Notes under the pieces: model-generated
The model's database searches: none
Told to the model about the DNA's origin: nothing
Seen by the model: the letters and a program-made list of their open reading frames with translations, nothing else
Shown: positions 10,344 to 56,115 of the stretch, piece by piece
Position numbering within the stretch: the stretch's first letter is position 1
How the letters are laid out: each line of letters opens with the position of its first letter
Made by a program: the position numbers and the translations under genes
NCBI GenBank assembly: GCA_944373095.1
Contig: CALWAK010000001.1
Span: 12,719-76,718, forward strand
Length of the DNA: 64,000 bases
Origin: an uncultured Bacilli bacterium
GTDB taxonomy: Bacteria > Bacillota_I > Bacilli_A > RF39 > UBA660
Direction: 5' to 3'

Positions 10344-10376
10344 AGCAAATAAAAAAGAGTGTTAATTACACTCAAA
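10344..10376 (-). terminator. Internal Rho-independent terminator between the TadC-like gene and cassette 2
   Basis: Transcript GAGUGU-AAUUA-ACACUC hairpin followed by UUUUUUAUUU; a TTGTAT-N17-TAAAAT promoter-like element lies immediately downstream. Confidence 0.5.
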
Positions 10377-10381
10377 AATTT

Positions 10382-12072: not shown

Positions 12073-12081
12073 ATCATCACC

Positions 12082-13473: not shown

Positions 13474-13492
13474 AACATCAACCCTTTTCTTT

Positions 13493-14263: not shown

Positions 14264-14277
14264 AAATTTCCTTTCTC

Positions 14278-15081
14278 TTATTGATTAACATAACTATTTT
14301 GAAAGTCAACACCAATATTAATTGATTTAGACAAAATATAATTTTCAATATATTGACTATCTATTGTTGGTTCTCTATCATAAGAAGAATAACTAGCATT
14401 TCTTGGTATTGGCATTACTTCAATACCACCACTAATATATTCTGTTTTTTTAAGTAGCGTATATAATTCATCAGGTACTGCAAACCACATTTGACGTGGT
14501 GATCTATCATCAGCTGATGATTCAAAGACATCATTTCCATTACTATCTAGTACCGCTAAAACTTTTATTCCTTCAATTAATCTTCCAAATATTATTTTAT
14601 TATTATCATCTACAGCTTTAACATATAAATCTACATAATTTCCAGTATATATTGAATTTCCATATGTAGAATCAATATCAACCGCTAAATTGTATGCAGT
14701 ATAACCATCCTTCATATCAGAAAATTCTGTTTTAATTGCTTCTTCAAAATTAACAATAATACTTGAATAGAAAAAACTATTTGCTGGTATTGTATTTCCA
14801 TATTTAACATAATTACCATTAATGCTTATAGAGTTAGTTACAATCCCAAGTGAGCTAGCAATCTTTTTAGGAATCTCCGTATATCCGATCATCTCAGCAG
14901 TTATTTGTGTACGACTAGTTATTTCAACTTTAGCATAAGGCACTTTTATTAGCGTTACCGCTTGATTTACCCTGTTATTATATATTGCATATAGTACTAT
15001 AATCCCAGCTAACACAATAAGAATTGTAAGCGTATTCTTATTACTTAATATTTTTTTAAATTCTTCTTTTACATTACCCAT
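14278..15081 (-). CDS. CpaB/RcpC-like Flp pilus assembly protein (N-terminal TM + SAF domain), copy 1
   Basis: TM (TLTILIVLAGIIVLYAIY), then LIKVPYAKVEITSRTQITAEMIGYTEIPKK (SAF), then VDLYV...KVLAVLD...WFAVPDELYTLLKKTEYISGGIEVMPIPRN, matching the CpaB pattern. Start set at the ATG at 15081 with RBS AAGGAGA. Confidence 0.65.
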   Translation of the reverse strand: MGNVKEEFKKILSNKNTLTILIVLAGIIVLYAIYNNRVNQAVTLIKVPYAKVEITSRTQITAEMIGYTEIPKKIASSLGIVTNSISINGNYVKYGNTIPANSFFYSSIIVNFEEAIKTEFSDMKDGYTAYNLAVDIDSTYGNSIYTGNYVDLYVKAVDDNNKIIFGRLIEGIKVLAVLDSNGNDVFESSADDRSPRQMWFAVPDELYTLLKKTEYISGGIEVMPIPRNASYSSYDREPTIDSQYIENYILSKSINIGVDFQNSYVNQ

Positions 15082-15095
15082 TTTATTCTCCTTAA

Positions 15096-15797
15096 TTAAC
15101 TGCAATAAGTAGCATTGTTAACAATATATACCCAATTTTTTTCAATAGCTTCTTTAAAAAATGGTTCGGAAAGCATTTCGCGACTTAATTCTGCAGCACT
15201 ACTTGAATTATGAATCCAAGCAAACTGACTAGATATTGCTTGTCTAAAATTTGTAGTTCCTCCATCATCCTTCCATTTTTGCAAATACGCATAATTAGAT
15301 ACATCATTAGACATTATATATTCTTTAAAATCATCATCAAAATGCAAGCAGCAAATACTTTCGTATCCACTAGTGCCACTAGAGCCATTATTTACTCCAC
15401 CAATTAATATAACATCAATAGTATCGACTAATTCAACTGCGTTATTAGAAGTGTTAGCAATATTAAATGAATTACTAACACTTGAAACTTTAACGCTTAC
15501 TTTAGGAGGAACTTCATGAATATCATAAAATTCAACGGTGTAATTTTTTGATAAAGTTGTAGATTCTACAAACCTTCTAATAAAATTTTCAGCAAATTTT
15601 TGTTCACTCATTCTTATATCACCATAAAGTCTATAATATGAGTAATCAATTGCATCAATCATTGCAGATTGAGTAACTTCTTTTAGCATATAATAATCTT
15701 CTGTACTTCCAGTAGTAGCACTATTTACTAACATCATTACACCGATTATAAATACACCTAATAATATTAACCAATACGCCCAATATGACGATTTCAT
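15096..15797 (-). CDS. N-terminally anchored (single TM) protein, cassette-1 copy
   Basis: MKSSYWAYWLILLGVFIIGVMMLVNS; paralog of 9549..10286. RBS AGGAGGAAG. Confidence 0.55.
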   Translation of the reverse strand: MKSSYWAYWLILLGVFIIGVMMLVNSATTGSTEDYYMLKEVTQSAMIDAIDYSYYRLYGDIRMSEQKFAENFIRRFVESTTLSKNYTVEFYDIHEVPPKVSVKVSSVSNSFNIANTSNNAVELVDTIDVILIGGVNNGSSGTSGYESICCLHFDDDFKEYIMSNDVSNYAYLQKWKDDGGTTNFRQAISSQFAWIHNSSSAAELSREMLSEPFFKEAIEKNWVYIVNNATYCS

Positions 15798-15808
15798 AAG
15801 TCTTCCTC

Positions 15809-18800: not shown

Positions 18801-20305
18801 TATAAATGGATTCCACTTTGACCATTATAAGTACTATATCCCTTAAATCCATCTACATTGCTTGGATAAAAACCATTTTGAAATATTTTTAGCGAAGTAC
18901 AAGTATTTTGAGTAGTGCTACTAGAACTATTGCTAGTATTAAAATTATTTCCTAAAATACCACTAACTTGGCCGTTATTTATCAAACCATTTATGATATC
19001 TTCTAATTTTACCGAATTATTATTGCCTTGAATACTATTTAAAATATTAGTAATAGTTTCATTGCTATTTCCACCTAAAATAACGTTAATTGCATCTTTG
19101 ATAACTGTGCTACTATATTTATTTATAGTATCACTAATAATTTTATCAATATTACCAGTATTTCCGTCCTTAATTACTTGATTAACAATATCAGTTAACA
19201 TATTTTTAATAGTATTATTAACATTTACATCATTTCCTATAGAAGTACTAATTGTTCTTGGATCAAATTGAATTAAACTATAAAAGCAATTAGTTGGAAC
19301 AGCTTGATTTTTTCCAATATATTTATAACCATCTTCACAAACGTAATATCCACCAGGGCTTGTCATAGATATTCCATCTTGACCTAAAACAATACCACCA
19401 ACTTTAGTATTAATTATAGCTTGAGGACTAATTCCATAATTTCCTTTATTATCAGAAGAAACATCTATCTTTAAAGTATATGAATCTACACCTAAATTTG
19501 ATATAGCTTCACTAGTCTTACAAGTAATTGAACAGCTTCCATTATTTGTAGCTGTAATATTTACCTTTCCGTCTACAACTAAATAACTTGCAACACCACA
19601 AGTACCACTACAAGACTCAGTTGAGAAATTTTTATTTAAATTTAGAAGTGTGCCTAATTGAAATGTTACATCATCTCCAGTGGTAGTATCTGTTGAACCG
19701 CCTGTTGAACTAGAGCCAGAGCCGGTTGAACTAGAACCACCTGAACTTGTTGAACCACCGGTTGAACTAGAATCACCTGTTGAATCTTGATGTTCTGAAT
19801 CATCTTCTTTAGTCACATTAACTCGATAAAGATTGTTGCCAACATAAGCAATTGCAAAGCAAGTTTTATTTTCAGCAACTAGTTTACATGAAGTATTCCC
19901 ATTGCTATCTTTAGTTGCTGTTGTTTTAAGACAGCTCTCATCACTAGATTTACAAGTAGGTGATTCAGATGTTACCGATAAAGATCCCATTGAACTTCCA
20001 TATTCTAAATTCAAATATCTAATTCTACCAACTTTAACAGTATAATTTTTGTATCCATCATTACCAACTGATACATTAGCAACGCAACTTTGACCATATG
20101 CTTTTAAAGTACATACGTTATCTTTTAAAAGTGCAGATACACAAGCTTTATTATAACTAACGCAAACATTAGAATCACTAAATTCCATTTCTTGAAATGG
20201 ATATAAATAAGCATCACTTGCATTAACTTTAAAACCAAAACCAAATATACATATTAAAGAAAATAATGATATTGATAATTTTTTATAATTAACTAATTTT
20301 TTCAT
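15809..20305 (-). CDS. Giant secreted Cys-rich protein, paralog 1 (1498 aa); putative adhesin
   Basis: Sec signal MKKLVNYKKLSISLFSLICIFGFGFKVNA, an S/G/T-rich linker and many Cys. Conserved blocks shared with 5162..8809. Start overlaps the upstream stop (ATGA). Confidence 0.65.
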   Translation of the reverse strand: MKKLVNYKKLSISLFSLICIFGFGFKVNASDAYLYPFQEMEFSDSNVCVSYNKACVSALLKDNVCTLKAYGQSCVANVSVGNDGYKNYTVKVGRIRYLNLEYGSSMGSLSVTSESPTCKSSDESCLKTTATKDSNGNTSCKLVAENKTCFAIAYVGNNLYRVNVTKEDDSEHQDSTGDSSSTGGSTSSGGSSSTGSGSSSTGGSTDTTTGDDVTFQLGTLLNLNKNFSTESCSGTCGVASYLVVDGKVNITATNNGSCSITCKTSEAISNLGVDSYTLKIDVSSDNKGNYGISPQAIINTKVGGIVLGQDGISMTSPGGYYVCEDGYKYIGKNQAVPTNCFYSLIQFDPRTISTSIGNDVNVNNTIKNMLTDIVNQVIKDGNTGNIDKIISDTINKYSSTVIKDAINVILGGNSNETITNILNSIQGNNNSVKLEDIINGLINNGQVSGILGNNFNTSNSSSSTTQNTCTSLKIFQNGFYPSNVDGFKGYSTYNGQSGIHLYEATANCTDDKTTIYDAFCIDPAMHGPHQKENGDSRSYYNITDTVDLNTEFGRAIYILYRDYYANTGKTAKDLYIATQVSRFLLGKIKDGKYEFLGWDNGPYKDKAQAYMNSAVTSDVRAIYEDVLNKAKSEDFSASEVSIDVSHSSGDNVEDGIKFIVTAKNVTDISKVTDLNLYVVDNNTKKDISSMFTISKGEWKQKDKDYVMEVTVKAFNLDEDVCEVILLASAKYNGENDVANIGIATSTTSSGTLQRFLIFNKSGVSNINDYENFKVNKTCNSNSACTPVAEYTCDDASSVTYVVEGTEAKDSNVKWESCIIGEEGEDGNVSGGKDPNGNTYELQEDNGYCAIYCKEDYAFKVPGNLNQYSANGNGFAQGRYISINLDKHYHAVAGLAGQKTCVTSEVMTEKFLKDSVEQKKDLLDAVNRYYKYKAQKEALENSDCLDDPTSNSIINYTYSIYKFENSSTSHDIIESNIVLLTSSASHRLIVEGSKNSQTSGTGNNIIDNIFGNSIKKNNYNELLSNINNGISTAQKDYNDALNKLNNQVDKIQDCTTWTDEEKLKDSYEFEPEIRFDYAENEYIDMMNGNNKLQPEKEVTSTTLGYYCEDNKETVVETGSCSTSVSDDNKITVKVPNSSIENATKSTDEIYYEYKRITGIVKYGDPGVALDGTRKEPELIYYKSSVPFYTHPNKGIVTTDNTDDSTLIDIGDKNRPDGTKPDGLVYPIKLTTPAGIYDYKLTFKNIGQYFMTDDTLGRIMGNNNGQEGYLTVNESDSYLCKYTVCAIDDPNCDNTPDGNEVCSNILASDVCKSGDIEDLDECISALLDKECCDEVINLNKMTINMVDRYNAVCPKQKYCQGFGIIEGNNGTSNDTGSAIIVNGKLEFTPKSVSLNNLFPNSSDSKGFNWVGTTHDGTSIGSIIEDIESAGESIYNNEPDFKIVINATCRAKILEYNNTQENNSLGFNDYTLSMNSSGTYDTSTFLAQLEAAGCIVEKDFD

Positions 20306-21015
20306 TTTTTCTTTCCCTTTCTCTTATAAACTTTTATATAAAATATGTATCCCCCAGCACTTAAACAAGCAACTAATATTGCAATTGGAACCCAATTGTT
20401 TTTTAATAAATCTACTGCTTGTCCTATTATCCCTTCTTTATCCTCTTCTTCCTTTCTTTTTGCATAATCTTCAATTCCTTTATAAAATTCTTTTTCAGAA
20501 ATATTATCTAAAAAAACAAATTCACTACAGTAATAATAATCAGGATACTCATCACATTGACTATATATACTAAATAAATTATAACGTGGAATCGAAATAT
20601 CAATTGTACGAATAACATTATCTATACATGAAGAATCAGTAGCGTAAACTTCTATCTTATATTTTTTTACTTCATTAGCCATCCCTGTTCCAACATATAT
20701 AACATTGTCAGCTGAAACATCATCTATTGTATATTTTCTAGAATTTCCATTATTATCTATAACATTTATATAAATATCTTCAGTTATATTATAAATATGA
20801 ATTAACCCATACCAATAAGAATCAGTTACATACTCTCCATATGTTTCATCATAATAGTCATTCTCATACAAAAAGGTTTCATACTCTGCCCTAACTGCAC
20901 CTGCAGCATTGTTTATTTTTGCTTGTGTTTCATAGTCACATTCAGCATATACGTAGTTTGTAAAACATAAAAATAACATAAAAGGTACAAGCACTAAAAC
21001 CTTTTTCATTTTCAT
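20302..21015 (-). CDS. Small type-I membrane protein (signal peptide + C-terminal TM), cassette-1 copy
   Basis: MKMKKVLVLVPFMLFLCFTNYVYA signal and C-terminal TM (WVPIAILVACLSAGGYIFYI). Paralog of 8815..9528. Start set at the ATG at 21015, preceded by GGGTGGTG. Confidence 0.55.
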   Translation of the reverse strand: MKMKKVLVLVPFMLFLCFTNYVYAECDYETQAKINNAAGAVRAEYETFLYENDYYDETYGEYVTDSYWYGLIHIYNITEDIYINVIDNNGNSRKYTIDDVSADNVIYVGTGMANEVKKYKIEVYATDSSCIDNVIRTIDISIPRYNLFSIYSQCDEYPDYYYCSEFVFLDNISEKEFYKGIEDYAKRKEEEDKEGIIGQAVDLLKNNWVPIAILVACLSAGGYIFYIKVYKRKGKKK

Positions 21016-21040
21016 AGCACCACCCACATTTCTACATTTA

Positions 21041-32169: not shown

Positions 32170-32522
32170 ATGAAAGAATATGAAAAATATATAATTATTA
32201 AAAATTTAGTTGATAATAACGTCAACAAAAATTCTGCTGCTATTAAATAGATTTATCTAAAAGAAAAATTAATCTTATTATTATTATTATTATTTATAAG
32301 GATAAAGGTAAATCTGGTTTTATCCACGGTAATCGTGGACGTCTCCCTACCAAGGCACTAGATAAATCAATCTCCGAGAATATTATACTACTTTATAAGA
32401 ATAAATACTATGATTGTAATTTTAATCATTTTAAAGATTTATTAAAAGAAAGAGAAAATATCAGTATTTCTTATAATTTTATTTATAGAACTTTAACTAA
32501 AAATAGTATCTATTTCCCCTAA
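32170..32522 (+). pseudogene. Truncated, frameshifted IS-element transposase N-terminal remnant (HTH region; family undetermined, IS481/IS3-superfamily-like)
   Basis: ATG at 32170 encodes MKEYEKYIIIKNLVDNNVNKNSAAIK* then a +2 frame continues ...SKRKINLIIIIIIYKDKGKSGFIHGNRGRLPTKALDKSISENIILLYKNKYYDCNFNHFKDLLKERENISISYNFIYRTL and stops at 32522 with no catalytic domain. Locally GC-richer than the surroundings. Confidence 0.4.
32275..32292. repeat. (TTA)6 trinucleotide microsatellite inside the transposase remnant
   Basis: ttattattattattatta; encodes poly-Ile in the remnant frame. Confidence 0.8.
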
Positions 32523-32614
32523 AATAAGAAAAAAGAACATACATAATATTGTATGTACCTAACACTTATGTTTTAAATTTTTTAAGACATTCTCAAAAGA
32601 TATTGACAGTCCTA

Positions 32615-32835
32615 TAGCAATTTTAATTGGTAATGAACAATCTTCAAAATTAATTATATATTTTATAATTTAATGATATTTATCAATATTAATTAAGCTA
32701 GATAATTTAGTTAAATAATCTATTTTTGGTAATTCAATAAAGTCAAATTATTCTTTAAGTTCAGGATGTTTTAATAAATAAACAGCGTGAATTGCTAATA
32801 ATAATTAGTATTGTTTATTTATTTCGATATTAAGA
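32615..32835 (-). pseudogene. Degenerate duplicated fragment of the 5' part of gene 30245..31258
   Basis: About 220 bp at roughly 85% identity to 31011..31240 (cctatagcaattttaattggta[a/g]tgaacaatcttcaaaattaattatatattttataatt...). Contains indels and no intact ORF. Confidence 0.55.
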
Positions 32836-32863
32836 TTATTAAATCTTTCTATAATCATACCAA

Positions 32864-37874: not shown

Positions 37875-38075
37875 AGTTTTAATTAAAAAAAGCACGTCCT
37901 AAAAGGACGTGCTTAAACGTGGTACCACCTTAATTTTTACTCTATAATCAGTTAACGGTAATTACTCGGGAATAATCCAGTTCATAAGGTGAATTCATAA
38001 CCATTTATTTTATAACCTCGCACCAATTTAGTTAATTCTCTTTAAAATAAATATTAGTTATTACTACTTCTTAAT
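37875..38075 (-). promoter_or_regulatory. T-box riboswitch leader (Phe specifier) controlling pheST
   Basis: Minus-strand transcript contains the T-box sequence AAUUAAGGUGGUACCACG, followed by the terminator AAGCACGUCC-uuuua-GGACGUGCUU + U7. GAAUUCA (UUC = Phe) is the candidate specifier. A TTGAAG...TGTTATACT promoter lies upstream. Confidence 0.65.
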
Positions 38076-38135
38076 CAAAACCTTTAAATTTCTTAATTAG
38101 TATAACATAACTAATTTATAAACTTCAATAGAATT

Positions 38136-39092
38136 TCATAACTTTCTAATCTTTTTAACATCACTTACAACACTTTGTAAATAACTAATATTATTATAAG
38201 AATCTTTATAATATTCATCGATTAGTTGTTTATTTTCTTTAAAATATTCTAAAAGTTCTTTAAAAATACTTATAAAGTAATCTTCTTCATATGGGCAAAT
38301 AAATTCTCTTTTATCTAAATACATATTTAAAGCATTTATAGATTCTTCGGAAAAGTTTAACTCATAACTTTTAGCTGGATAAATTTTATAGTCTCCAGCA
38401 CCATTAATTATCGTACATAAACTAGGATTAATAATTTTATGTATAGATGTATTTGTTGCATCATAAATATAGGCCATATCTTTTTCAAAGATTAGTGTAA
38501 ATACATGCTTTTCTAAAACTCTATCAATTAAACTACTTTGTTTACTAAGATCAATATTTCTTTCTATTAAAATATCACCGCTTATAGTTTTTGTATTGCT
38601 TTTAGCTAATAAATTACAAGATTGGTAACCCATATTATTTAATAAATCTTTTAATAAATCACTATGATTTAAGCATACTCCTAAACCATCAAATAAATCA
38701 TATGAAAATAGTCCATTTGTCATTACACAATTCTTGTTAGCAAAAGTATTACTTCTATTTATTGAAAAATAGCCATTCCATAAAAGATATGTATATAAAA
38801 TTGCAGCATTAAGAGAATTTTCTAAATGTAGTTCATTTGCTAATTTAGAAAATTTATTACATAAAGCATTATATACATCGAATGTATAATAAAAATTATA
38901 TCTTTGCACGGAACTACTATTAACATTATATTTTATATTTAAAGCATAAAAAGCAATTATAACATATTCAATATTTTCTAAAAATAAATTTTTAATAAAT
39001 CTATATATCTCTATTTTATCAGTCTCATTAATGATATATTTATATATAGTATATCTCTTTTCATCTCTTAATAATTTCGAAAAATATTCCAT
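38136..39092 (-). CDS. Transglutaminase-like superfamily protein (putative Cys-His-Asp cysteine protease fold)
   Basis: GLGVCLNHSDLLKDLLNNMGYQS (Cys motif) and HVFTLIFEKDMAYIYDATN (His...Asp) resemble the TGase-like core. Own promoter TGCTATAAT and RBS GGTGAT. Confidence 0.4.
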   Translation of the reverse strand: MEYFSKLLRDEKRYTIYKYIINETDKIEIYRFIKNLFLENIEYVIIAFYALNIKYNVNSSSVQRYNFYYTFDVYNALCNKFSKLANELHLENSLNAAILYTYLLWNGYFSINRSNTFANKNCVMTNGLFSYDLFDGLGVCLNHSDLLKDLLNNMGYQSCNLLAKSNTKTISGDILIERNIDLSKQSSLIDRVLEKHVFTLIFEKDMAYIYDATNTSIHKIINPSLCTIINGAGDYKIYPAKSYELNFSEESINALNMYLDKREFICPYEEDYFISIFKELLEYFKENKQLIDEYYKDSYNNISYLQSVVSDVKKIRKL

Positions 39093-39111: not shown

Positions 39112-39140
39112 AATTATAGCATAACTAAAAAAAGATGCAA
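39112..39140 (-). terminator. Rho-independent terminator after pilin gene copy A
   Basis: Transcript AAAGAUG-ugauauug-CAUCUUU followed by UUUUUU. Confidence 0.45.
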
Positions 39141-39150
39141 TATCACATCT

Positions 39151-41091
39151 TTAATAATAAACTGTCCGAGTTTCAGTTTCACATATATCACATCCAGTTG
39201 CCGAGCAACTCTTGCTTCCATCAGTCCAACTAGTCCATGGATACCATGTATCACATCCATTACATTTACTTGCACATCTTTTATATACGTCACAACTGCC
39301 ATCTGAACATGGTGATTGTGTGCCATCTTCATACCAATGATTAGGGTTTGAAGAACCCGAGTTTGCTGCATCACAATCACTTGAAGAAAAATTGTCATTA
39401 CAAGGATATGAACTACAACCAGTTTGATTTTGAGGATCCCAACAACTTGTACACATTTGATTAGAACTATTTGAACCACATGATGTCAATGTTTCATTAG
39501 AAGTATTTGGACACATTCTAGGTACTTCACATTCAGCAGCTGAACATCTTTTTCCATCTTTACAATTTCTTGTTCGATATTGTGGTTGTGGATATACCAT
39601 TACACTACATGTACCTTTATTATTTAAATTATCGTATATTTCAAATGTATGTAATCCATCTTTTAAATTATCTTTAGTTAAAGTTAATTCTTTTACTCCA
39701 CTATGATCATCTTGTTCCTGAAATACAACTTTTAATCCATCTATATCTGTTTTTACATCATATTTTTGGTATGACGTACAATAAGGGGGAGTTGTATCAA
39801 CCAATGTATTAACTGTTTTTACACAATGAGTTGAATTACCTAAGTTATCATATATATACCAATCTACTACATCATAAACTTTTGTGCTTGTTATATCTAC
39901 TTTATAACTTGTTGTATTATCATTACAAGTTGTTTCTCCATTTTTAGTGGTACATTTGCAACCACTACCTGAGTCGGTACTACAACCATATGTATATGAA
40001 TAACTTGTTTTCCATGCTGTATTATCTTCTGGATACAAACATGTTGGTCCAGTTTTATCTATATTAGTTATTTCAAATGATGTTGATTTTGATATATTAC
40101 CAGATTTATCAATTACATACGCATAATATATACCAACATCTTCTCTTACTTTAGCCATATCCTCGCCCAAAGACGAATCAATATCTATATTAAAATCACT
40201 TTCTGTCGGCTCATAACTAGAGTTTGCAGTAACAAAAAATTTACTTATTCCCGATCCTAAACCATCACTTCCTACTAAAGTCACCTCTTTATTTCCATCA
40301 CTCCATGTTGGTGATACACTTACTTGAACAAATGGTTTTTCTTTATCTATTTTTACTTTACTTTTTTTTACTGCATTCCCACTACTTAATTTCATTGTAA
40401 ACATAAATTCATTATTTAATAATGAATCTGTACTTACTACCAATATATTGGCATATTCATTACTATTTACATCATCTAAAGTTGTTAAATCATATAATAC
40501 TTTTCCTGTTTTTTCTTTATTACCTGATGCTGTTTGCCATACTGCTGTAACCTCTTCAGGTAATTCTTCATCAACTAAACTTAAATCTGCAACTAATAAA
40601 ACATTTTTATTTGTCCAGTTAAATTCATCATTATTTCTAAATATAGATGCACCAACTGATGAACCATCTATTTCATAAGCAAACAAGTTTATATTATGAC
40701 TACTTTCCTCTAATTCAATATTACAATTCTCTTTATTTGAATCTATAGATATATCATATTCCATTCCATCTCTAGTTATATACACACAATATTCATCTAA
40801 ATATCCACCTAGAGGATTTTCTATTTTTTCAAATTCATTATTTTCTGGTATTTCTTCTAATAAATATCCCATTTCTATTAGTTTATTTACTGATACAATA
40901 TCACTATCAATATTATTTTCATTAGCATATATATATGCTTTAGATTTTATATTTTCTAACTTTGTTTCATATTCCCTTTGTCTAACTACTTCTGTTAATT
41001 TATTATAGGCAGGAACTGCCATAAATATTAGTATTGATAGTATTACTAATACTGCTAGTAATTCTACTATTGTAAAACCCTTTTTTCTCAT
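39151..41091 (-). CDS. Modular type IV pilin-like protein, copy A (646 aa): prepilin N-terminus + large C-terminal module ending in a Cys-rich domain
   Basis: MRKKG|FTIVELLAVLVILSILIFMAVPAYNK is a class III (prepilin) signal with Gly at -1, Phe at +1 and Glu at +5, plus a hydrophobic alpha1 helix. The C-terminal about 130 aa carry more than 20 Cys. RBS GGAGTG 5 nt before the ATG at 41091. Confidence 0.75.
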   Translation of the reverse strand: MRKKGFTIVELLAVLVILSILIFMAVPAYNKLTEVVRQREYETKLENIKSKAYIYANENNIDSDIVSVNKLIEMGYLLEEIPENNEFEKIENPLGGYLDEYCVYITRDGMEYDISIDSNKENCNIELEESSHNINLFAYEIDGSSVGASIFRNNDEFNWTNKNVLLVADLSLVDEELPEEVTAVWQTASGNKEKTGKVLYDLTTLDDVNSNEYANILVVSTDSLLNNEFMFTMKLSSGNAVKKSKVKIDKEKPFVQVSVSPTWSDGNKEVTLVGSDGLGSGISKFFVTANSSYEPTESDFNIDIDSSLGEDMAKVREDVGIYYAYVIDKSGNISKSTSFEITNIDKTGPTCLYPEDNTAWKTSYSYTYGCSTDSGSGCKCTTKNGETTCNDNTTSYKVDITSTKVYDVVDWYIYDNLGNSTHCVKTVNTLVDTTPPYCTSYQKYDVKTDIDGLKVVFQEQDDHSGVKELTLTKDNLKDGLHTFEIYDNLNNKGTCSVMVYPQPQYRTRNCKDGKRCSAAECEVPRMCPNTSNETLTSCGSNSSNQMCTSCWDPQNQTGCSSYPCNDNFSSSDCDAANSGSSNPNHWYEDGTQSPCSDGSCDVYKRCASKCNGCDTWYPWTSWTDGSKSCSATGCDICETETRTVYY

Positions 41092-41102
41092 ATACACTCC
41101 TT

Positions 41103-43043
41103 TTAATAATAAACCATACGAGTTTCAGTCTCGCATATATCGCATCCAGTTGCTGAGCAACTCTTGCTTCCATCAGTCCAACTAGTCCATGGATACCATG
41201 TATCACATCCATTACATTTACTTGCACATCTTTTATATACGTCACAACTGCCATCTGAACATGGTGATTGTGTGCCATCTTCATACCAATGATTAGGGTT
41301 TGAAGAACCCGAGTTTGCTGCATCACAATCACTTGAAGAAAAATTGTCATTACAAGGATATGAACTACAACCAGTTTGATTTTGAGGATCCCAACAACTT
41401 GTACACATTTGATTAGAACTATTTGAACCACATGATGTCAATGTTTCATTAGAAGTATTTGGACACATTCTAGGTACTTCACATTCAGCAGCTGAACATC
41501 TTTTTCCATCTTTACAATTTCTTGTTCGATATTGTGGTTGTGGATATACCATTACACTACATGTACCTTTATTATTTAAATTATCGTATATTTCAAATGT
41601 ATGTAATCCATCTTTTAAATTATCTTTAGTTAAAGTTAATTCTTTTACTCCACTATGATCATCTTGTTCCTGAAATACAACTTTTAATCCATCTATATCT
41701 GTTTTTACATCATATTTTTGGTATGACGTACAATAAGGGGGAGTTGTATCAACCAATGTATTAACTGTTTTTACACAATGAGTTGAATTACCTAAGTTAT
41801 CATATATATACCAATCTACTACATCATAAACTTTTGTGCTTGTTATATCTACTTTATAACTTGTTGTATTATCATTACAAGTTGTTTCTCCATTTTTAGT
41901 GGTACATTTGCAACCACTACCTGAGTCGGTACTACAACCATATGTATATGAATAACTTGTTTTCCATGCTGTATTATCTTCTGGATACAAACATGTTGGT
42001 CCAGTTTTATCTATATTAGTTATTTCAAATGATGTTGATTTTGATATATTACCAGATTTATCAATTACATACGCATAATATATACCAACATCTTCTCTTA
42101 CTTTAGCCATATCCTCGCCCAAAGACGAATCAATATCTATATTAAAATCACTTTCTGTCGGCTCATAACTAGAGTTTGCAGTAACAAAAAATTTACTTAT
42201 TCCCGATCCTAAACCATCACTTCCTACTAAAGTCACCTCTTTATTTCCATCACTCCATGTTGGTGATACACTTACTTGAACAAATGGTTTTTCTTTATCT
42301 ATTTTTACTTTACTTTTTTTTACTGCATTCCCACTACTTAATTTCATTGTAAACATAAATTCATTATTTAATAATGAATCTGTACTTACTACCAATATAT
42401 TGGCATATTCATTACTATTTACATCATCTAAAGTTGTTAAATCATATAATACTTTTCCTGTTTTTTCTTTATTACCTGATGCTGTTTGCCATACTGCTGT
42501 AACCTCTTCAGGTAATTCTTCATCAACTAAACTTAAATCTGCAACTAATAAAACATTTTTATTTGTCCAGTTAAATTCATCATTATTTCTAAATATAGAT
42601 GCACCAACTGATGAACCATCTATTTCATAAGCAAACAAGTTTATATTATGACTACTTTCCTCTAATTCAATATTACAATTCTCTTTATTTGAATCTATAG
42701 ATATATCATATTCCATTCCATCTCTAGTTATATACACACAATATTCATCTAAATATCCACCTAGAGGATTTTCTATTTTTTCAAATTCATTATTTTCTGG
42801 TATTTCTTCTAATAAATATCCCATTTCTATTAGTTTATTTACTGATACAATATCACTATCAATATTGTTTTCATTAGCATATATATATGCTTTAGATTTT
42901 ATATTTTCTAACTTTGTTTCATATTCTCTTTGTCTAACTACTTCTGTTACTTTATTATAGGCAGGAACTGCCATAAATATTAGTATTAATAGTATTACTA
43001 ATACTGCTAGTAATTCTACGATTGTAAAACCTTTTTTATTCAT
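41103..43043 (-). CDS. Modular type IV pilin-like protein, copy B (646 aa)
   Basis: MNKKG|FTIVELLAVLVILLILIFMAVPAYNK. Differs from copy A by only a handful of residues (leader R/N, S/L, L/V, T/M near the C-terminus). Start set at the ATG at 43043. Confidence 0.75.
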   Translation of the reverse strand: MNKKGFTIVELLAVLVILLILIFMAVPAYNKVTEVVRQREYETKLENIKSKAYIYANENNIDSDIVSVNKLIEMGYLLEEIPENNEFEKIENPLGGYLDEYCVYITRDGMEYDISIDSNKENCNIELEESSHNINLFAYEIDGSSVGASIFRNNDEFNWTNKNVLLVADLSLVDEELPEEVTAVWQTASGNKEKTGKVLYDLTTLDDVNSNEYANILVVSTDSLLNNEFMFTMKLSSGNAVKKSKVKIDKEKPFVQVSVSPTWSDGNKEVTLVGSDGLGSGISKFFVTANSSYEPTESDFNIDIDSSLGEDMAKVREDVGIYYAYVIDKSGNISKSTSFEITNIDKTGPTCLYPEDNTAWKTSYSYTYGCSTDSGSGCKCTTKNGETTCNDNTTSYKVDITSTKVYDVVDWYIYDNLGNSTHCVKTVNTLVDTTPPYCTSYQKYDVKTDIDGLKVVFQEQDDHSGVKELTLTKDNLKDGLHTFEIYDNLNNKGTCSVMVYPQPQYRTRNCKDGKRCSAAECEVPRMCPNTSNETLTSCGSNSSNQMCTSCWDPQNQTGCSSYPCNDNFSSSDCDAANSGSSNPNHWYEDGTQSPCSDGSCDVYKRCASKCNGCDTWYPWTSWTDGSKSCSATGCDICETETRMVYY

Positions 43044-43077
43044 CTCTACCATCCTAAAAAGATTATAGCAAATAATA

Positions 43078-43110
43078 AAAAAAATGTATACTATTTTACT
43101 TCGTATACAC
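43078..43110 (-). terminator. Rho-independent terminator overlapping the rpmA stop, followed by a promoter for pilin copy B
   Basis: Transcript UGUAUAC-gaaguaaaaua-GUAUACA + U8; then TATACA-N17-TATAAT and AGGA before the pilin ATG. Confidence 0.45.
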
Positions 43111-43990: not shown

Positions 43991-44306
43991 ATTTTCCCTC
44001 CTTAACATAAGACACGCCTTTAAGGTGACCTAAAGTTCTTTTTTACCTTTTTAGTGCGGTTTTAAAGAAAGCCCTTAAAACGCTTTAATTCTATCAAGAA
44101 TTTTAAAATATGTCAAACAATTTATACTAATTATAGTATAAAATTAATTTTTTTATAAAAAAATTATACAACTAAGAAAGAAAATTAAACTAAATTTTTT
44201 TAATTTTACTAAAATAGTTATATAAGTTTTATTTTAAATATTTATTAAAAGAAAAATTTAGCTTTATTTAAATTTTAAAGCATAATTATTTTTGTTTTAA
44301 ATTTAA

Positions 44307-47300
44307 TTAGCAACCACCGCCGCCACTTGAGCCTCCATCATCTGTTTCAATTTCATCTTTCCATATTGCTGTTAATGTGATAGTACCACCGTCTTCCGAA
44401 ACTATGTTTTTTAAATTAGCTAAATTTTCATGGGGAGTACCATTACTATCTAGCCATCCAGCAAACGTTGTGTTAGCTTTCGTAAATTGATTTTCAGGAA
44501 GATAACAATCTTGATCATATACACAAGTTCTAGATTCCATAAAACCTTTACCTGTACCTGAACTAAACAAAATTGTAAATTTATTTGGAGCAGCTACTAA
44601 ATTTATTGAAGCATCACCCTCAAGCAATCGAATTTTCAAAAAAGAAATATTGTCAACATTTATTTTTTCAATTGGTCCAAATGAAGTAAAGCCTGAATAA
44701 TGATATCCTATTTTAGCATTTATTTCAGATATTTCAATATTTGTAAAGTAAGGAATAATTTCATTGTAATAAGTTTGTTGACTTAAAATTGGATTATTTC
44801 CAACTTTTACATTAAAAGACGCTATATTTTGATCAGTCTCTATCTTAAAATTATATTTTTCATTTGTCCAATGAGCATATAATGTTTGATTACCAGGAGT
44901 TTTATAAATTGTACTATTACTTATTAAATCTCCACCTTCTTTTTCAGTATACCAGCCTATAAAAATATATTCATCCTTCGTAGGAATAGGCAAATAACCA
45001 TAATTATTTCCAAACAAGACATTAATATTTTGCGTATCAATTAATCCACCATTAGCATCAAAATATACAATGTACTCATTAGATTTCCAATGAGCATATA
45101 AAGTATGAGTTTTATTTTCAATAACAACAGATTCAGATGTAATTTTGTTGCCACTAGTAAATTTAGTATACCAGCCATCAAATTCATATCCAATTCGAAA
45201 TGGAATTGGTAAATCTCCATAAGTTTTTGTGTATGTTACTTGTTTACTTTGAGGATTAACAGTTCCACCTGTTGCATCAAAATTAACAGAATAATTTGCT
45301 AATCTCCAATGAGCATAAATTGTTTGACTTTCAGTTAAAGTAACAATGTCATTTTCATCAATTCTAGTTCCGCCTTCTCTTTTAGTATACCAGCCATCAA
45401 ACTCATAACCATCTCTTGTTGCAGTTGGTAAAACCCCATATTTAGAATTATGTAGAACCCAAATTGTTTTAAAGTCTAAATTAACATTATCAGCATTTCC
45501 ATCAAAAGTTAGTTCAAAATAATTGTCCAAAGTTCCATTTATTTTAGTAATTTTAATAAATCCATTTCCTTCTTTTGCTGAATAACTAATTGGTTCATAC
45601 TCTCCATCATCAACCCTATAAATATTGTTGGTCGATATTGTATAAGTATCTGTTGATTCACTACTTTGGCAATTATAGCAATACATTTTTTTATCGTATA
45701 GGCTATTATTTACATAGCCCGAGCCACCTGTTCCAATTTTAAGAGTGCTTGCTCTACCGCCATAATATCCACCTCCTGAGCCTGAATAATTATTTCCAGA
45801 TTCACCTTGGCCAAATGAAAATCCATTAGACTGGGTCCCCCCATTATCACTAGAAGTTGCCCCACTACCAATGTATCCTCCTCCTGAACCACCATTTTTC
45901 CCATCGTTACCGGTCACTATAGCTCCGCCGCCACCACCAGCAACTAATATTATAGAAGATTTATTAGATTCTAAACCACTTAAAACTCCATTAATAGTGG
46001 CAATATGGCTAGCTCCGCCGCCACCAGCGCATAAATTATTATCAGTGCAATTTGCACCGCCGCCACCGTTAAAACTTGTGGATATAGTAGTAGAATTATT
46101 AAAATTATCACTACCTTTTTCTCCTACAGCCAAATATAAATAAGTATTATATGAAATATCTAACATACCGATACTATAGCCACCATAGCCACCACTATAA
46201 GTTGTATTATTTTTAGAAACTGAACCTCCTTGTGCTCCCCATGCTTCTAATTTATAGCTACCTGGTGCCGTTATTAATAAACGCTCTACTGTACCCGTAT
46301 AAGGATAATAAAAAACCTCATTTGTCCAAAAAGCATATAATGTCATATTTTTATTAATAGTTTCATTCTCATTTGGCCTACCTAATCTATCAAAATATCT
46401 TGTTCCTGTCCCATTAGGACTACTAAAATAGCCTAAAAAAGTGTAATTTTCACGTTTTGGTGGTGCAATAGTAAATAGATTTTGGCCAGCAGTTAAACTA
46501 ATATATGTTTTTGCAACATCATTTCCATTATCAAAAGTAATATTAATTTTCTCATAACTTTCTAAAAGTTCATAAGATATTGTACCTTCAAAATAATTTA
46601 TTTTATAACGATTATTTATTGTTCCATCAGAATTTAATTTTGTACCATCAAAATATTCTTTTGCTTCATCTAAATTCCATGAATTTGCATTAATTATATC
46701 TGTTACATCAGTAAATAATAATTCATCAATTAAAATATATGCACCAGAAATATTTGTATTAGATTCGATACTAAAATCTACTACATTAAAGTTATCAGTA
46801 ACTTCAATTTTAAAAACAATGGAATCCTGATACCAATCAGAATATCCACCATTAAGATTGATACTATTATTACCATCAACATAGCAGCCACTGCTACAAG
46901 TAATATTAATTTTATTATCGCCATTTGTTGACTGATTTCTTAAAATTTTTGAACTAACATAAATATAATGAGTTCCAACACTTAAATTTTCTAATTTTTG
47001 TAAAATATTACGACTTACATTTTTTTTGCCAACTTCATAATTATATGTATTACTTTGAGTTCCATTTTGATATATCTCAGAATAATTATAAGTTCCTAAC
47101 ATTAAAGCATAGTCTCCAGAATATCTAACATTTTTTATATAGCGATAAGCATAATCTCTATCATTATTCCAATTTTCAATAGTAGAATCTAGTTTATAAT
47201 CTTTTGAACCATTATAATGAATCTCTACTAAATAATCAGTATCATAAATTGCTGAACTAGGATTAGATGGATATTCAAAGCCACTATTTTTCAAATAATT

Positions 47301-47480
47301 AGTTATCTTAAAATATTTAGATTCAATTAGATTATTTAAAGAATTTGTAACATCTCTATTACTGCTAAAAATAATACCTTGATAGTATGCATAAGTTCCT
47401 ATTATTGCTGCAATTAATGCTATGAAAACTATAATAAAAGAATATATTAGTGAAGAAGAAACAAACCCTTTTTTATTCAT
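44307..47480 (-). CDS. Large surface protein (1057 aa) with a prepilin-like MNKKGF leader (non-canonical, Ser at +5), a Gly-rich region and five or more Listeria-Bacteroides (Flg_new) repeats
   Basis: N-terminus MNKKGFVSSSLIYSFIIVFIALIAAIIG. Repeats such as GYEFDGWYTKREGGTRIDENDIVTLTESQTIYAHW, GYEFDGWYTKFTSG...HTLYAHW, YIFIGWYTEKEGG...QTLYAHW, YTFLGYFSSPNGTG...TLYAFW and TFAGWLDSNGT...TLTAIW. Ends ...GGSSGGGGC. Confidence 0.7.
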   Translation of the reverse strand: MNKKGFVSSSLIYSFIIVFIALIAAIIGTYAYYQGIIFSSNRDVTNSLNNLIESKYFKITNYLKNSGFEYPSNPSSAIYDTDYLVEIHYNGSKDYKLDSTIENWNNDRDYAYRYIKNVRYSGDYALMLGTYNYSEIYQNGTQSNTYNYEVGKKNVSRNILQKLENLSVGTHYIYVSSKILRNQSTNGDNKINITCSSGCYVDGNNSINLNGGYSDWYQDSIVFKIEVTDNFNVVDFSIESNTNISGAYILIDELLFTDVTDIINANSWNLDEAKEYFDGTKLNSDGTINNRYKINYFEGTISYELLESYEKINITFDNGNDVAKTYISLTAGQNLFTIAPPKRENYTFLGYFSSPNGTGTRYFDRLGRPNENETINKNMTLYAFWTNEVFYYPYTGTVERLLITAPGSYKLEAWGAQGGSVSKNNTTYSGGYGGYSIGMLDISYNTYLYLAVGEKGSDNFNNSTTISTSFNGGGGANCTDNNLCAGGGGASHIATINGVLSGLESNKSSIILVAGGGGGAIVTGNDGKNGGSGGGYIGSGATSSDNGGTQSNGFSFGQGESGNNYSGSGGGYYGGRASTLKIGTGGSGYVNNSLYDKKMYCYNCQSSESTDTYTISTNNIYRVDDGEYEPISYSAKEGNGFIKITKINGTLDNYFELTFDGNADNVNLDFKTIWVLHNSKYGVLPTATRDGYEFDGWYTKREGGTRIDENDIVTLTESQTIYAHWRLANYSVNFDATGGTVNPQSKQVTYTKTYGDLPIPFRIGYEFDGWYTKFTSGNKITSESVVIENKTHTLYAHWKSNEYIVYFDANGGLIDTQNINVLFGNNYGYLPIPTKDEYIFIGWYTEKEGGDLISNSTIYKTPGNQTLYAHWTNEKYNFKIETDQNIASFNVKVGNNPILSQQTYYNEIIPYFTNIEISEINAKIGYHYSGFTSFGPIEKINVDNISFLKIRLLEGDASINLVAAPNKFTILFSSGTGKGFMESRTCVYDQDCYLPENQFTKANTTFAGWLDSNGTPHENLANLKNIVSEDGGTITLTAIWKDEIETDDGGSSGGGGC

Positions 47481-52426: not shown

Positions 52427-54206
52427 TTATAACATCCAAAAATATATATACTTATTCTTTCTTTCTAATTTTTTTGAATTGTCAGAATTTGATTTTTTCT
52501 TATCTACTCTATTACTATACTCATCATATTCTTCTAATCTAGTTAAGTAACTTTTTAATTCACTTTTTATTTCATATAAATCACTTATTATTTTCGTTTT
52601 AATAATTAATATATCACTTGTTAAACCATAGGTTTTATTATTTGATTCGATAATACTATTTAAATCTTCATTATTTAATAATTTATACCAATATTTTAAT
52701 AATTTTTTTAGTTTATTATTTATATTATCTTTAGTATTGTCATCTAATAGACAATTATTAGTTAAACTTAGTATTTCTTTTAGAATAGAAATTAACCAAT
52801 TATCATTTTCATTAACCTTATTTTTCATATATTTTTTAGTTAAAGCAATATCATTTAATAATTCTTTATTTTCCATTATTTTAGAAATTTCCTTATTTAA
52901 TTCTTCTAAGATACGATTTAATTCCTGACGAAAGTTAGTCTCAATTTGACAAGCTGATAAATATTCTTCATCATCAAATAAAAAAAACAACATTATCTTT
53001 TACAAACTTAATATATTTTTTAATTAACTTATGATATTTATCATATAGTTCACTAATTATTTTATTATTTATATTAGTAAATACATCATTTAAACTGATT
53101 AATTCATTTGCTAAACTACTATTCCCCTCAAATTGCAAACTCTTTAATAAATTTTCATATGGTAAAGCAAGCATTACTTGTTGATATATTTTATCAAGTT
53201 CAATATTAAAAAATATATTTATATCAATGTCATTTAAATCTATTTTATTATTAAATATATTACTTAAACTATTATTAATAAATTCTTTAGCAGCCAATAA
53301 TAACTCTTTTAATTTATTTACTAAACTCTTATTTTTAAATAAACTAGAAATTTCTTTTATTTTACGTATTTTATTAAAATTATTATCATCTTTTAATTCT
53401 ATATATTTATCTTCTATAATAAAACTATAATACTCTCTTATTTTAAAAGATAAATTTAACATTTTCTTATTACTGTTTAATAATATTAATATATTATTTA
53501 AAGAAATGATTAAATTATTTTGTAAGTCTCTAGGACTTGTACATTCTAAAGTTAAACAAGTATTTTCTTTTCGATTATAATCTTGTTTAAAATTCGATAG
53601 ATTATTCTCATATTCATCTAACAATTTAGAAACTTTTCTTTTAATAACATTAGCAACCTCATCATCCAAGCTTTTACAAAGTTTTTTAATTTCCTTTACT
53701 AAGTCTTTTACTTCATCATCATTAATATTAGATTTAGCTAAATCTAATTCTTCTACAATACTAATTTGTATGCCATTCATATAAGAAAGTTTTTTTATCA
53801 TAGTTTTTTCGTGAGTAGAAAGTTTATTATTTACAATAACTATTTTTTTTAACTTATTAAAATTATCAATTGTATAAATTCTATCGTGTAATAAGAATTT
53901 TTTTAAAAAATTATAATCACCATCAATAGCATTAATTTTTGTTACTAAAGAAAAATTATTATCAGCAATAAAAAGGCCATTATTATAAAAAGTTAGTTCA
54001 TTTATTGGATTATTAAAAAAGGCATACGAAAATATATCTGTAACACTACTTGGTATAAATAGCTTTGTTATATAGTTATTCGCAAAAGCATATCCTCCTA
54101 TTACTTTAACACCATTTTCTATAACAATAGAATCTATATTCTTGTTGTAGTACTCTTCACATTCTATTTGTTTCTTATCATCGTGAATTATTAAAGTCTT
54201 CCCCAT
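52427..54206 (-). pseudogene. BspA-type LRR protein paralog split by a -1/+1 frameshift in a T8 homopolymer (ORFs 52974..54206 and 52427..52993)
   Basis: The two ORFs align end-to-end with the intact 618-aa paralog (...KYIKFVKDNVVFF | LFDDEEYLSACQIETNFRQ... vs ...KYIDIIKSNVTDIFNNQEFLSANQIETNFRQ...). The junction is at aaaaaaaa, 52980..52987. Confidence 0.6.
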
Positions 54207-54258
54207 AAAAATATCCCCTTAATTGGGGATATTATAGCATATTTTTTATATAAGTAAA

Positions 54259-56115
54259 TTAATTTCTTCCAGAATAGTATTTGTCATATTTAGCAAAATC
54301 CCAAAAAGAAAGATGCTTATATTCTTTTTTTAATTCTTTTGAATTATTTTCTATTAAACTACTTTTAGTTTCTTTGGTTTTATTCATCTCTAAATTATTG
54401 TATTTATTATATTCTTCTAATCGTATTAAATAACTTTCCACTTCTCTTTTTATTTCATAGAAATCTCTAATTATTTTTGTTTTTACTATTAAAACGTCAC
54501 TTGTTAAACCATAACTATTATTAAGAGATTCAACAATACTATTTAAACTATTATTGCTTAATAATGTGTACCAATATTGTAACAATTTTGTTAACTTATC
54601 ATTAATATCTCCTACAATGTTATCTTCTAATAAATTATTATTAGTTAAACTCAATACCTCTATGATAATAGAAATTAACCAATTTTCATTTTCACTATAA
54701 TGATATTCTATATACTTGTTAGCTAGACATATATCACTAAGTAATTCTTGATTTTCTAATATTTTAGGTAATTCTTTATTTAATTCTTCTAATAATAAAT
54801 TTAACTCTTGACGAAAATTAGTTTCAATTTGATTAGCTGATAAAAATTCTTGATTATTAAAAATATCAGTTACATTGCTTTTTATAATATCAATATATTT
54901 TTTTATTAATTCTTGATATTTATTAAATAAAGAATTAAGTAATTCGCTATTTACCTTACTAAATATATCATTTAAATTATTTAAATCAGCTGCTAATTTA
55001 CTATCGCCTTTTAGTCCTAAACTCTTTAACAAATTTTCATATGGAATTAAAAATAATGCTTGTTGATAAATTTTATCAAGTTCAGAATCAAAAAGACTAG
55101 GTATATCTAAGTTAGTCAAATCTAATTTATCATTAAATAAATTATCTAAATTATTATTAATTTGCATTTTTATATTTAATAATAACTCTGCAACTTTAGC
55201 AACTAAAAATTTATTTTTAAATATTCTATCTAATTCTTTTATTTTACTTATTTTTTTAAAATTATTATCTTCTGCTACTTCTATATTTTTATCATACATA
55301 AAAAATTCATTATATCGAGTTATTTTAGTTGATAAATTTAATATTTTTTTACGACTATTTAATAACAATATTAAATTATTTAAAGATATGATTAAATTAT
55401 TTCGTAAATCTCTAGGATTTGTACATTCTAATGTTAATATTTGTTCTTCTTGATAATAATCTGGTTTTAAATTTACTAAATTTTTATTATATTCATCTAA
55501 TAATTTAGTAACTTTCATTTGAATTATATTACTACTCTGTTCATCTAACCCCTTACAAAGTAACTTAATTTCTTCTAATAAATTATTTAACTCATCATCA
55601 ACACTAATTTCTTGAAAAGAATCTTCTTCTGCAACATTAAACCTAGTTATATCAGTTGCAAAACTTATTTGAATTCCTTTTATCATGGCAAATTCTTTTA
55701 TTTTTCTCTTTTCACTAAAAGTTAATTTATTATTAACTAGCACTATTCTTTCTAATTTTTTAAAATTATCTGTATCAATAATTTCAATATATCTAAAAAA
55801 TTTTTCTAAAAAAGCAGAATTACCATTTATTACATTAAGTGTTAAGACATAATAAAAATTATAATCACAAATATAAGGTAAAATTCCATTATTATAAAGC
55901 GTTAACTCTGTTATTGGATTTCCAGAAAAAGCCTCATAAAAAATTTTATCTATACTTTTAGGTATAATCAAATTAGTTATATTATTGTGAGCAAAAGCAC
56001 GTACTGCTATTTCTTTAACTCCTTCTTTTATAAAAAGAAAAGCAATACCTTGATCAAAATATTCTTCATATTTAATAAGTTGTCTTTTTCCATCAATTAC
56101 TACAGTTTTTCCCAT
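54259..56115 (-). CDS. BspA-type leucine-rich-repeat N-terminal domain protein with a long helical C-terminal region (618 aa)
   Basis: N-terminus IKEGVKEIAVRAFAHNNITNLIIPKSIDKIFYEAFSGNPITELTLYNNG follows the LRR_5 pattern. Own promoter and RBS shared verbatim with the paralog. Confidence 0.5.
   Translation of the reverse strand: MGKTVVIDGKRQLIKYEEYFDQGIAFLFIKEGVKEIAVRAFAHNNITNLIIPKSIDKIFYEAFSGNPITELTLYNNGILPYICDYNFYYVLTLNVINGNSAFLEKFFRYIEIIDTDNFKKLERIVLVNNKLTFSEKRKIKEFAMIKGIQISFATDITRFNVAEEDSFQEISVDDELNNLLEEIKLLCKGLDEQSSNIIQMKVTKLLDEYNKNLVNLKPDYYQEEQILTLECTNPRDLRNNLIISLNNLILLLNSRKKILNLSTKITRYNEFFMYDKNIEVAEDNNFKKISKIKELDRIFKNKFLVAKVAELLLNIKMQINNNLDNLFNDKLDLTNLDIPSLFDSELDKIYQQALFLIPYENLLKSLGLKGDSKLAADLNNLNDIFSKVNSELLNSLFNKYQELIKKYIDIIKSNVTDIFNNQEFLSANQIETNFRQELNLLLEELNKELPKILENQELLSDICLANKYIEYHYSENENWLISIIIEVLSLTNNNLLEDNIVGDINDKLTKLLQYWYTLLSNNSLNSIVESLNNSYGLTSDVLIVKTKIIRDFYEIKREVESYLIRLEEYNKYNNLEMNKTKETKSSLIENNSKELKKEYKHLSFWDFAKYDKYYSGRN

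Follow-up and report, generated by a model that had tools for sequence, protein, structure and literature searches.

A tandem pair of putative modular type IV pilins with immunoglobulin-like stalks and cysteine-rich tails in an uncultured Bacilli bacterium

We analyzed a 64,000-nt stretch of DNA from an uncultured Bacilli bacterium (assembly GCA_944373095.1, contig CALWAK010000001.1; hereinafter the window, whose numbering is used for all coordinates), which has a G+C content of 25.2% and codes on its minus strand for two nearly identical proteins of 646 residues in head-to-tail arrangement (copy A upstream and copy B downstream). Each combines an N-terminal type IV pilin module with four predicted immunoglobulin (Ig)/fibronectin type III (FnIII)-like domains and a cysteine-rich C-terminal tail. 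We propose that they are probably modular type IV pilins, which a prepilin peptidase with its gene in another part of the genome would process and a filament would display, with the Ig domains forming a stalk that presents a disulfide-rich adhesive tip. Modular pilins are defined by the fusion of an N-terminal pilin module to one or more modules that are not specific to type IV pilus biology (PMC8179133), and the domains predicted past residue ~125, namely the four Ig/FnIII-like domains and the tail, conform to this definition. A preliminary description of this DNA had already recognized the two 646-residue proteins with an M(R/N)KKG start; the two tandem open reading frames (ORFs) are confirmed and are assigned here to the minus strand, which that description had not given, with ATG start codons at 43043 (copy A) and 41091 (copy B).

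Both proteins bear a class III signal, in which a short hydrophilic leader terminates in Gly and a stretch of about 21 hydrophobic residues, including a Glu at +5, comes next. In the two precursors a basic leader of five residues, M(N/R)KKG, ends in Gly and precedes FTIVELLAVLVIL, giving MNKKG/FTIVELLAVLVILLILIFMAV in copy A and MRKKG/FTIVE... in copy B, with Gly at −1, Phe at +1 and Glu at +5. The curated cut-offs of the Pfam N_methyl (PF07963; 22.6 bits as against 21.2) and TIGR02532 (20.3 bits as against 16.3) models are both passed, which substantiates the canonical prepilin leader of the preliminary description, where an N_methyl scan had been suggested. Across an alignment of 29 homologs with 29–99% identity, Glu+5 is invariant, and Gly−1 and Phe+1 are at least 90% conserved. 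This pattern points to selection on residues required for processing and assembly as opposed to mere membrane anchoring, and we regard Glu+5 and Gly−1 as the strongest argument for our proposal. It bears directly on the main rival explanation, namely a pilin-like signal-anchor surface protein, in which the N-terminus, whether cleaved or not, would serve for export and membrane anchoring only, with the Ig stalk spanning the wall and no filament being formed: a plain anchor would not need these residues, and we consider this explanation unlikely (see below for the evidence in its favor).

In a search of PDB sequences, the first 59 residues align with the solved Geobacter PilA-N (E=2.8e-4), and residues 6–70 show a weaker, non-significant match to Streptococcus sanguinis PilE1 (E=0.16). 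The models for ComGC, ComGD, GspG and PilA match the N-terminus alone with scores far under their cut-offs. An AlphaFold2 model built on the 29-homolog alignment (mean predicted local distance difference test score, pLDDT, of 68) places an α1 helix (residues 8–58) on a small head with strands between residues 63 and 117 (pLDDT ~75–82) and a low-confidence loop at 82–96. Thus, the earlier designation of these proteins as pilin leaders with grafted modules is upheld by the hidden Markov model (HMM) thresholds, the conservation of Gly−1 and Glu+5, the matches to solved pilins and the AlphaFold2 model. Two more specific assignments were rejected. The competence pilin ComGC (NF040999) is the best-scoring named pilin HMM (residues 3–80, E=1.7e-8) and shares the Firmicute-type leader KKGFT(L/I)xE; however, the score of 34.5 bits falls short of the 75-bit cut-off, and while ComGC is a protein of ~100 residues with no extra modules that is encoded within the comG operon, the window proteins have 646 residues and no adjacent comG genes. 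Flp/Tad pilins are characterized by a G/XXXXEY processing motif, a mature length of ~50–80 residues and location in a tad locus, whereas the leader in the window is of the GFTIVE type.

Following the pilin module, the AlphaFold2 model displays four β-sandwich domains from residue ~135 to 499 (pLDDT 75–95). This region yields no Pfam match at E<=10. A fold search with the model matched adhesin-type Ig arrays, with Ig domains dominating the matches. The tail (residues 502–646) was not modelled in the full-length prediction (pLDDT ~30). Of the 28 cysteines in the whole protein, 18 lie in the last 147 residues and 16 in the last 130, where the preliminary description had counted more than 20. Of the spacings it listed for the tail, CxxC is present three times, but neither CC nor CxC occurs there, the sole CxC of the protein (C378-K-C380) being within the third Ig-like domain. 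Both ends of the tail are conserved, with a start of the form QPQ.R.R.C..G.RC.AAGCE and a C-terminus of the form GC..W..W..W.DGS..CS..GC..C....RTVYY. The same ends are found in the database proteins P0002–P0005 and, more distantly, in P0096 (1614 residues), P0185, P0204, P0210 and the fragments P0212 and P0213.

When the tail profile was used for a word-indexed search, only two further proteins were retrieved. No match to the tail was obtained in Pfam at E<=10, and its profile gave a single match among PDB sequences, to a nanobody, which we dismissed as a chance hit. AlphaFold2 modeling of the tail alone, which the preliminary description had asked for, reached a mean pLDDT of 42, with the first, Trp-rich and last strands (5–17, 117–120 and 141–149) at ~75, and a Foldseek search with this model returned no fold match. 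At the motif level only, the Trp ladder W..W..W.DGS..CS..GC....R.VYY is reminiscent of the thrombospondin type 1 repeat (TSP1; PF00090), and real TSP_1 domains are present in P0034, which belongs to the family. Nevertheless, the tail was not assigned to this family: there is no Pfam match at E<=10, and since hhalign returns a probability of only 5% against the TSP1 region of P0034, the likeness is a lead and not a classification. As this module has no match in Pfam or the PDB, the family that carries it is a candidate for host- or glycan-binding adhesins in gut commensals about which little is known.

The coding sequences of the two copies differ at 15 of 1941 nt (99.2% identity), all within gene positions 5–177 and 1890–1929, and repeat with a period of 1952 bp, in agreement with the tandem duplication of ~99% identity and ~1952 bp reported earlier. 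Only four residues change from copy A to copy B (N2R, L19S, V32L and M643T), and a 1712-bp core (39203–40914 = 41155–42866) is 100% identical. Such a core is the expected look of a collapsed repeat that a short-read assembler has traversed twice; thus, it is conceivable that the genome has a single copy and the tandem duplication is false, all the more as a single copy, flanked by rpmA and the pheS T-box, is present in the closest species (75% identity; locus L005) and the contig from a third sample (L031) breaks within the pilin gene. We nevertheless hold such an artefact to be very improbable. A second metagenome assembly from a different sample (L030, a 57,640-bp scaffold reached via LexA and rpmA) has the same gene order (rplU-prp-rpmA, copy A, copy B, a gene for a 318-residue protein, pheS), and the 3′ end of copy A, the 11-nt spacer, the 5′ end of copy B and 14 copy-specific sites are identical in these two independent assemblies. 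Moreover, in CALVSW, a metagenome-assembled genome (MAG) of another species, two copies that are 99.85% identical occupy different loci, each with its own unique flanks. As the junction between copies A and B cannot come from a single copy, we conclude from these sequences that at least two copies exist, and the duplication is to this extent real.

The two assemblies differ at 47 of 7206 aligned bases, all within the two pilin genes, while the flanks are 100% identical. Among the differences, 23 sites (positions 875–996 and 1559–1696) distinguish the assemblies, yet are the same in both copies of each. Per copy there are 13 nonsynonymous as against 6 synonymous codon changes, and these are concentrated in two regions, the tail and the second Ig-like domain, a pattern typical of exposed ligand-binding or antigenic surfaces. 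The identical cores could reflect gene conversion, which would keep the copies uniform, in combination with hypervariable patches. Alternatively, a short-read assembler may have passed through a collapsed core two times, and the 23 sites may then truly distinguish copy A from copy B. In the pilE/pilS system of Neisseria, multiple near-identical pilin copies undergo gene conversion, with the variation being confined to exposed parts. The window pair resembles this system, as well as pilE1/pilE2 of S. sanguinis (the latter mentioned in PMC8179133), in having multiple near-identical pilin copies whose variation is limited to exposed regions. However, both window copies are full-length and apparently expressed; there are no silent cassettes, and the conversion is deduced from two short-read assemblies. 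If real, the confinement of mismatches to the pilin genes in otherwise identical 7-kb regions would signify rapid diversification of an exposed surface.

We propose that the two copies would constitute a two-gene unit, transcribed from a promoter-like site in front of copy A or by read-through from the ribosomal protein genes rplU-prp-rpmA, linked by the 11-nt spacer with its ribosome-binding site (RBS; AAAGGAG, with the copy B start ATG six bases downstream) and closed by a weak terminator-like hairpin after copy B. The terminator scanner, which requires at least three G-C pairs, missed this hairpin, and it found no terminator on the 3′ side of rpmA.

An exact-sequence look-up of the window pilin found no record. 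By contrast with the claim that giant pilins of this style are rare, the proteins belong to a large, uncharacterized family: a word-indexed search retrieved 37 relatives, most with N_methyl, and a full HMMER profile search gave, at E<=1e-30, 1057 representatives of 50% clusters. Giant Ig-repeat proteins account for many of these, but dozens begin at residue 1 with the pilin N-terminus. A verified member with pilin and Ig modules, P0096, has 1614 residues. In Raynaud et al. 2021, more than 1200 modular pilins were sorted into 264 architectures, with FnIII among the frequent ones and an extreme of 860 residues (PMC8179133). Since modular pilins have already been shown to be widespread, the gene pair is of a known and widespread kind, and its size of 646 residues is not exceptional. 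A genome scan with an alignment of 10 sequences gave matches solely in uncultured Bacilli from the gut ('Coprobacillus sp. CAG:605', 'Mycoplasma sp. CAG:956', and Hadza and Brazilian MAGs), and several genomes hold two to four paralogs of the pilin-plus-Ig family.

The metagenomic members of this family (e.g., P0002–P0028, P0096, P0185, P0204 and P0210) share the same architecture over the N-terminal 440 residues, with 29–76% identity, but differ in their C-terminal modules, which comprise extra Ig repeats, an ALK/LTK glycine-rich domain (GRD; as in P0006, a true family pilin), other Cys-rich modules or transmembrane (TM)-like Gly/Ala-rich tails. The identities of the window pilin are likewise a mosaic: its tail is 42% identical to P0002 and 62% to P0003, whereas its N-terminal 345 residues are closer to P0002; accordingly, the tail groups with P0003 and P0005 and the N-terminal part with P0002. 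This indicates recombination of modules, the tail being a fast-evolving region that is exchanged among family members. In distant subfamilies (L001, L014, L016, L017, L018, L010 and L002) the pilin-plus-Ig gene is followed by an unannotated protein of 370–440 residues with an N-terminal membrane anchor (clusters c1, c14 and c26), sometimes as repeated pilin-partner pairs. Many family members have this partner, but it is absent from the window and its subfamily.

Among experimentally known systems, the closest precedents are PilB (vWA module) and PilC (lectin module) of S. sanguinis (PMC8179133), of which PilB is an established filament-displayed adhesin. Like these, the window proteins have a monoderm host, carry Glu+5 in a canonical class III signal, combine a small pilin module with grafted modules and are predicted to act as tip adhesins. 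They differ in carrying four Ig/FnIII-like domains and a Cys-rich tail in place of the vWA or lectin module, in being duplicated and encoded outside a pil locus, and in being known from sequence alone. CofB of enterotoxigenic Escherichia coli and TcpB of Vibrio cholerae also join a pilin module via a linker to β-rich domains and form the tip (PMC8179133); however, they are type IVb proteins of diderms encoded inside a pilus operon, have another number of domains and no Cys-rich module, and show no sequence similarity to the window proteins.

In our proposal, a prepilin peptidase from elsewhere in the genome would cut after Gly5 and methylate Phe1, and the α1 helix would let a type IV filament machine (Com-like or other, outside the window) insert the subunit into a filament, most probably at the tip or in low abundance because of its bulk. 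The Ig stalk would then carry the disulfide-rich tail outward, where it might act as an adhesin or ligand-binding tip.

Several observations weigh against this proposal. No Peptidase_A24, PilB/ComGA-type ATPase or PilC/ComGB was found in the 64-kb window (ORFs of at least 100 residues for A24) or in 10 kb past its left end, and there is no adjacent major pilin gene. The ~25 genomic contexts of family members are nearly all housekeeping, sporulation or type VII secretion system (T7SS) neighborhoods. High expression, as suggested by the position directly behind a ribosomal operon with no terminator, would be atypical of a minor pilin. Finally, the predicted structure of the tail is unreliable (pLDDT ~30 and 42), and no function can be assigned to it.

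With regard to the contexts, the prepilin-peptidase motif GxGDxK gave only false positives in all fetched DNA (TyrS-like and 318-residue proteins), none of them in a membrane protein. ORF clustering across 24 loci of relatives returned the same T7SS, sporulation and housekeeping neighbors, with the membrane-anchored partner of the distant subfamilies as the sole recurrent one. Two contexts speak for the proposal: the gene of P0020 (L002), a distant relative, directly follows those for a ParA-like protein, a T2SSE ATPase and a protein whose T2SSF match is faint, and P0028 (L026) is beside two smaller N_methyl proteins. In two further loci (L020, 1977–9048; L015, 2–5787), a pilin homolog is directly downstream of a T7SS cluster with an EssC-like ATPase of 1529 residues and several WXG100-size proteins.

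The signal-anchor explanation introduced above fits the lack of pilus machinery in the window and in most of the relatives' contexts. It is also consistent with the several paralogs per genome that bear different C-terminal modules, one of them the glycine-rich GRD of P0006, with a neighboring protein (44307–47480) that has the same MNKKGF start without Glu+5, and with the conservation of the high-expression position behind rpmA in three species. On the other side, in addition to the conserved leader residues, bacteria commonly have orphan pilin genes located far away from the machinery that they depend on. Thus, while we rank this explanation as the main rival, with the artefact discussed above and the use by a Tad-like system discussed below being less likely, we continue to favor a filament-displayed modular pilin.

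The preliminary description also stated that nothing else of a type IV pilus machine lies nearby. This stands for the PilB, PilC and PilD types, none of which was found, but overlooks an internally duplicated Tad-like locus, which resembles type IV filament systems, at 5162–21027 on the minus strand, 18–34 kb from the pilin pair (Table 1), in which neither a pilin nor a peptidase was recognized. The pilins could be substrates or pseudopilins of this DUF5411-type system: the window codes for its VirB11/TadA-type ATPase, two CpaB-like proteins and two polytopic membrane proteins, P0020 has the ParA-like, T2SSE and faint T2SSF genes mentioned above directly upstream, and Miller et al. 2022 predicted the DUF5411-type operon to be a new secretion-related system that is sometimes near PilA genes (PMC9523054). 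We examined this linkage in 80 metagenomic loci (1.06 Mb, gut metagenomes) centered on homologs of the window ATPase. While the core genes of the Tad-like locus are conserved in 41–75 of these, just one has an ORF with a class III signal within 10 kb of the ATPase homolog, and none has a homolog of the window pilin. A link between the pilins and the Tad-like locus was therefore rejected as a general association. Moreover, the ATPase of L002 has just 24% identity to that of the window over 164 residues, the GFTxxE-type leader is unlike the G/XXXXEY type of Flp, and the locus has no peptidase gene of its own, rendering this alternative improbable.

A bolder possibility, which we deem quite unlikely, is that the pilin leader was co-opted as the export and anchoring device of a large, fast-diversifying adhesin family that needs no classical pilus, in which the duplicates evolve in concert and the second Ig-like domain and the Cys-rich tip are hypervariable, in wall-bearing gut Bacilli with small genomes. 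If true, pilin genes behind a ribosomal operon would here form the basis of a system for antigenic or ligand variation. For the modular pilins proposed here, the wider interest is that such proteins are thought to be a route by which simple type IV filaments gain new binding functions, and that the family is abundant in uncultured human-gut Bacilli, with members reaching at least 1614 residues and several paralogs per genome. The current picture of type IV filaments is unchanged, with one uncharacterized member being added, together with a module that is worth solving.

Table 1. Positions of the pilin gene pair, its modules and other features of the window
Feature	Position	Strand	Remarks
Copy A modular pilin gene (upstream)	41103-43043	-	646 residues, MNKKG/FTIVE..., stop included; ATG at 43043; identical to database protein P0001
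Copy A class III signal peptide, residues 1-27	42963-43043	-	MNKKG leader, F+1, E+5, hydrophobic α1N; PF07963 residues 2-25, TIGR02532 residues 3-25, PDB pilin matches
Copy A rest of pilin module, residues 28-125	42669-42962	-	Predicted α1 to residue 58, small β-sheet head with Cys102/Cys123; AlphaFold2 model, weak ComGC HMM match at residues 3-80
Copy A four Ig/FnIII-like β-sandwich domains, residues 126-500	41544-42668	-	Predicted; AlphaFold2 model, fold matches
Copy A Cys-rich C-terminal module, residues 501-646	41106-41543	-	18 Cys; Cys count, conserved ends
Copy B modular pilin gene (downstream)	39151-41091	-	646 residues, MRKKG/FTIVE..., stop included; ATG at 41091; identical to P0038
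Copy B class III signal peptide, residues 1-27	41011-41091	-	MRKKG leader, F+1, E+5; motif scan and sequence
Copy B four Ig/FnIII-like domains, residues 126-500	39592-40716	-	Protein sequence identical to copy A
Copy B Cys-rich C-terminal module	39154-39591	-	One residue unlike copy A: T643 for M643
Promoter-like site, TATACA-17-TATAAT with TG extension	43062-43090	-	In 47-nt rpmA/copy A spacer; consensus match only
11-nt spacer with RBS, copy A stop to copy B start	41092-41102	-	Same junction in second assembly (L030)
Weak terminator-like hairpin, AAGATG/CATCTT and T7 run	39127-39151	-	Directly 3′ of copy B; read by eye
L21 leader before rplU	44000-44071	-	41.2 bits, above gathering score
Gene for 318-residue protein	38136-39092	-	Directly downstream of pilin pair; preceded by TGCTATAAT, extended −10-like site
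T-box leader before pheS	37900-38087	-	83.2 bits, under gathering score of 93, E=1e-18; terminator 37890-37914
VirB11/TadA-type ATPase	12082-13473	-	Tad-like locus; only T2SSE ATPase of the window
Two CpaB-like proteins	13493-14263, 14278-15105	-	Tad-like locus
Two polytopic membrane proteins	10382-11170, 11170-12072	-	Tad-like locus
Two DUF5411 proteins	9549-10286, 15096-15797	-	Tad-like locus
Two TM-anchored Cys proteins	8815-9528, 20302-21027	-	Tad-like locus
Two giant secreted Cys-rich proteins	5162-8818, 15809-20305	-	Tad-like locus

The pilin pair had been placed between a ribosomal protein operon and a transglutaminase-like gene. Its upstream neighbor is indeed rplU-prp-rpmA with the L21 leader, but the nature of the downstream gene is less certain: its 318-residue product matches neither PF01841 nor any other entry in Pfam (E<=10), and has no match in NCBIfam or among PDB sequences. 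Cys140, His196 and Asp211-Pro-Thr are invariant in 17 homologs, which fits a triad of the papain/transglutaminase type, a possible but unproven assignment. In two related species (L007 and L009) the gene likewise comes after the pilin, and a third (L005) lacks it.

Further upstream (44307–47480, minus strand) lies the gene for a protein of 1057 residues that starts MNKKGFVSSSLIYSFIIVFIALIAA, i.e., with a pilin-type MNKKGF leader lacking Glu+5, and has no N_methyl match. It combines an ALK/LTK glycine-rich domain, a module in common with the pilin P0006, with four Listeria-Bacteroides (Flg_new) repeats, and in the closest species (L003/L004) the syntenic region lacks its gene. Directly downstream of the giant Cys-rich secreted proteins (2347–5088, minus strand) are a membrane-anchored thioredoxin/PedC-like protein (2347–2898) and then an ABC-2 permease with an ATPase; the former might serve outside the cell to handle the disulfides of the organism's many Cys-rich surface proteins. 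No tRNA genes were found in the window, and ~630 bp at 32229–32863 lack ORFs of 40 residues or more on both strands, with no match in Rfam at E<=0.1. Lastly, three tandem paralogous BspA-type leucine-rich-repeat proteins of 188, 410 and 618 residues are encoded at 52427–56115 on the minus strand, the first two of which may represent one gene split by a frameshift.

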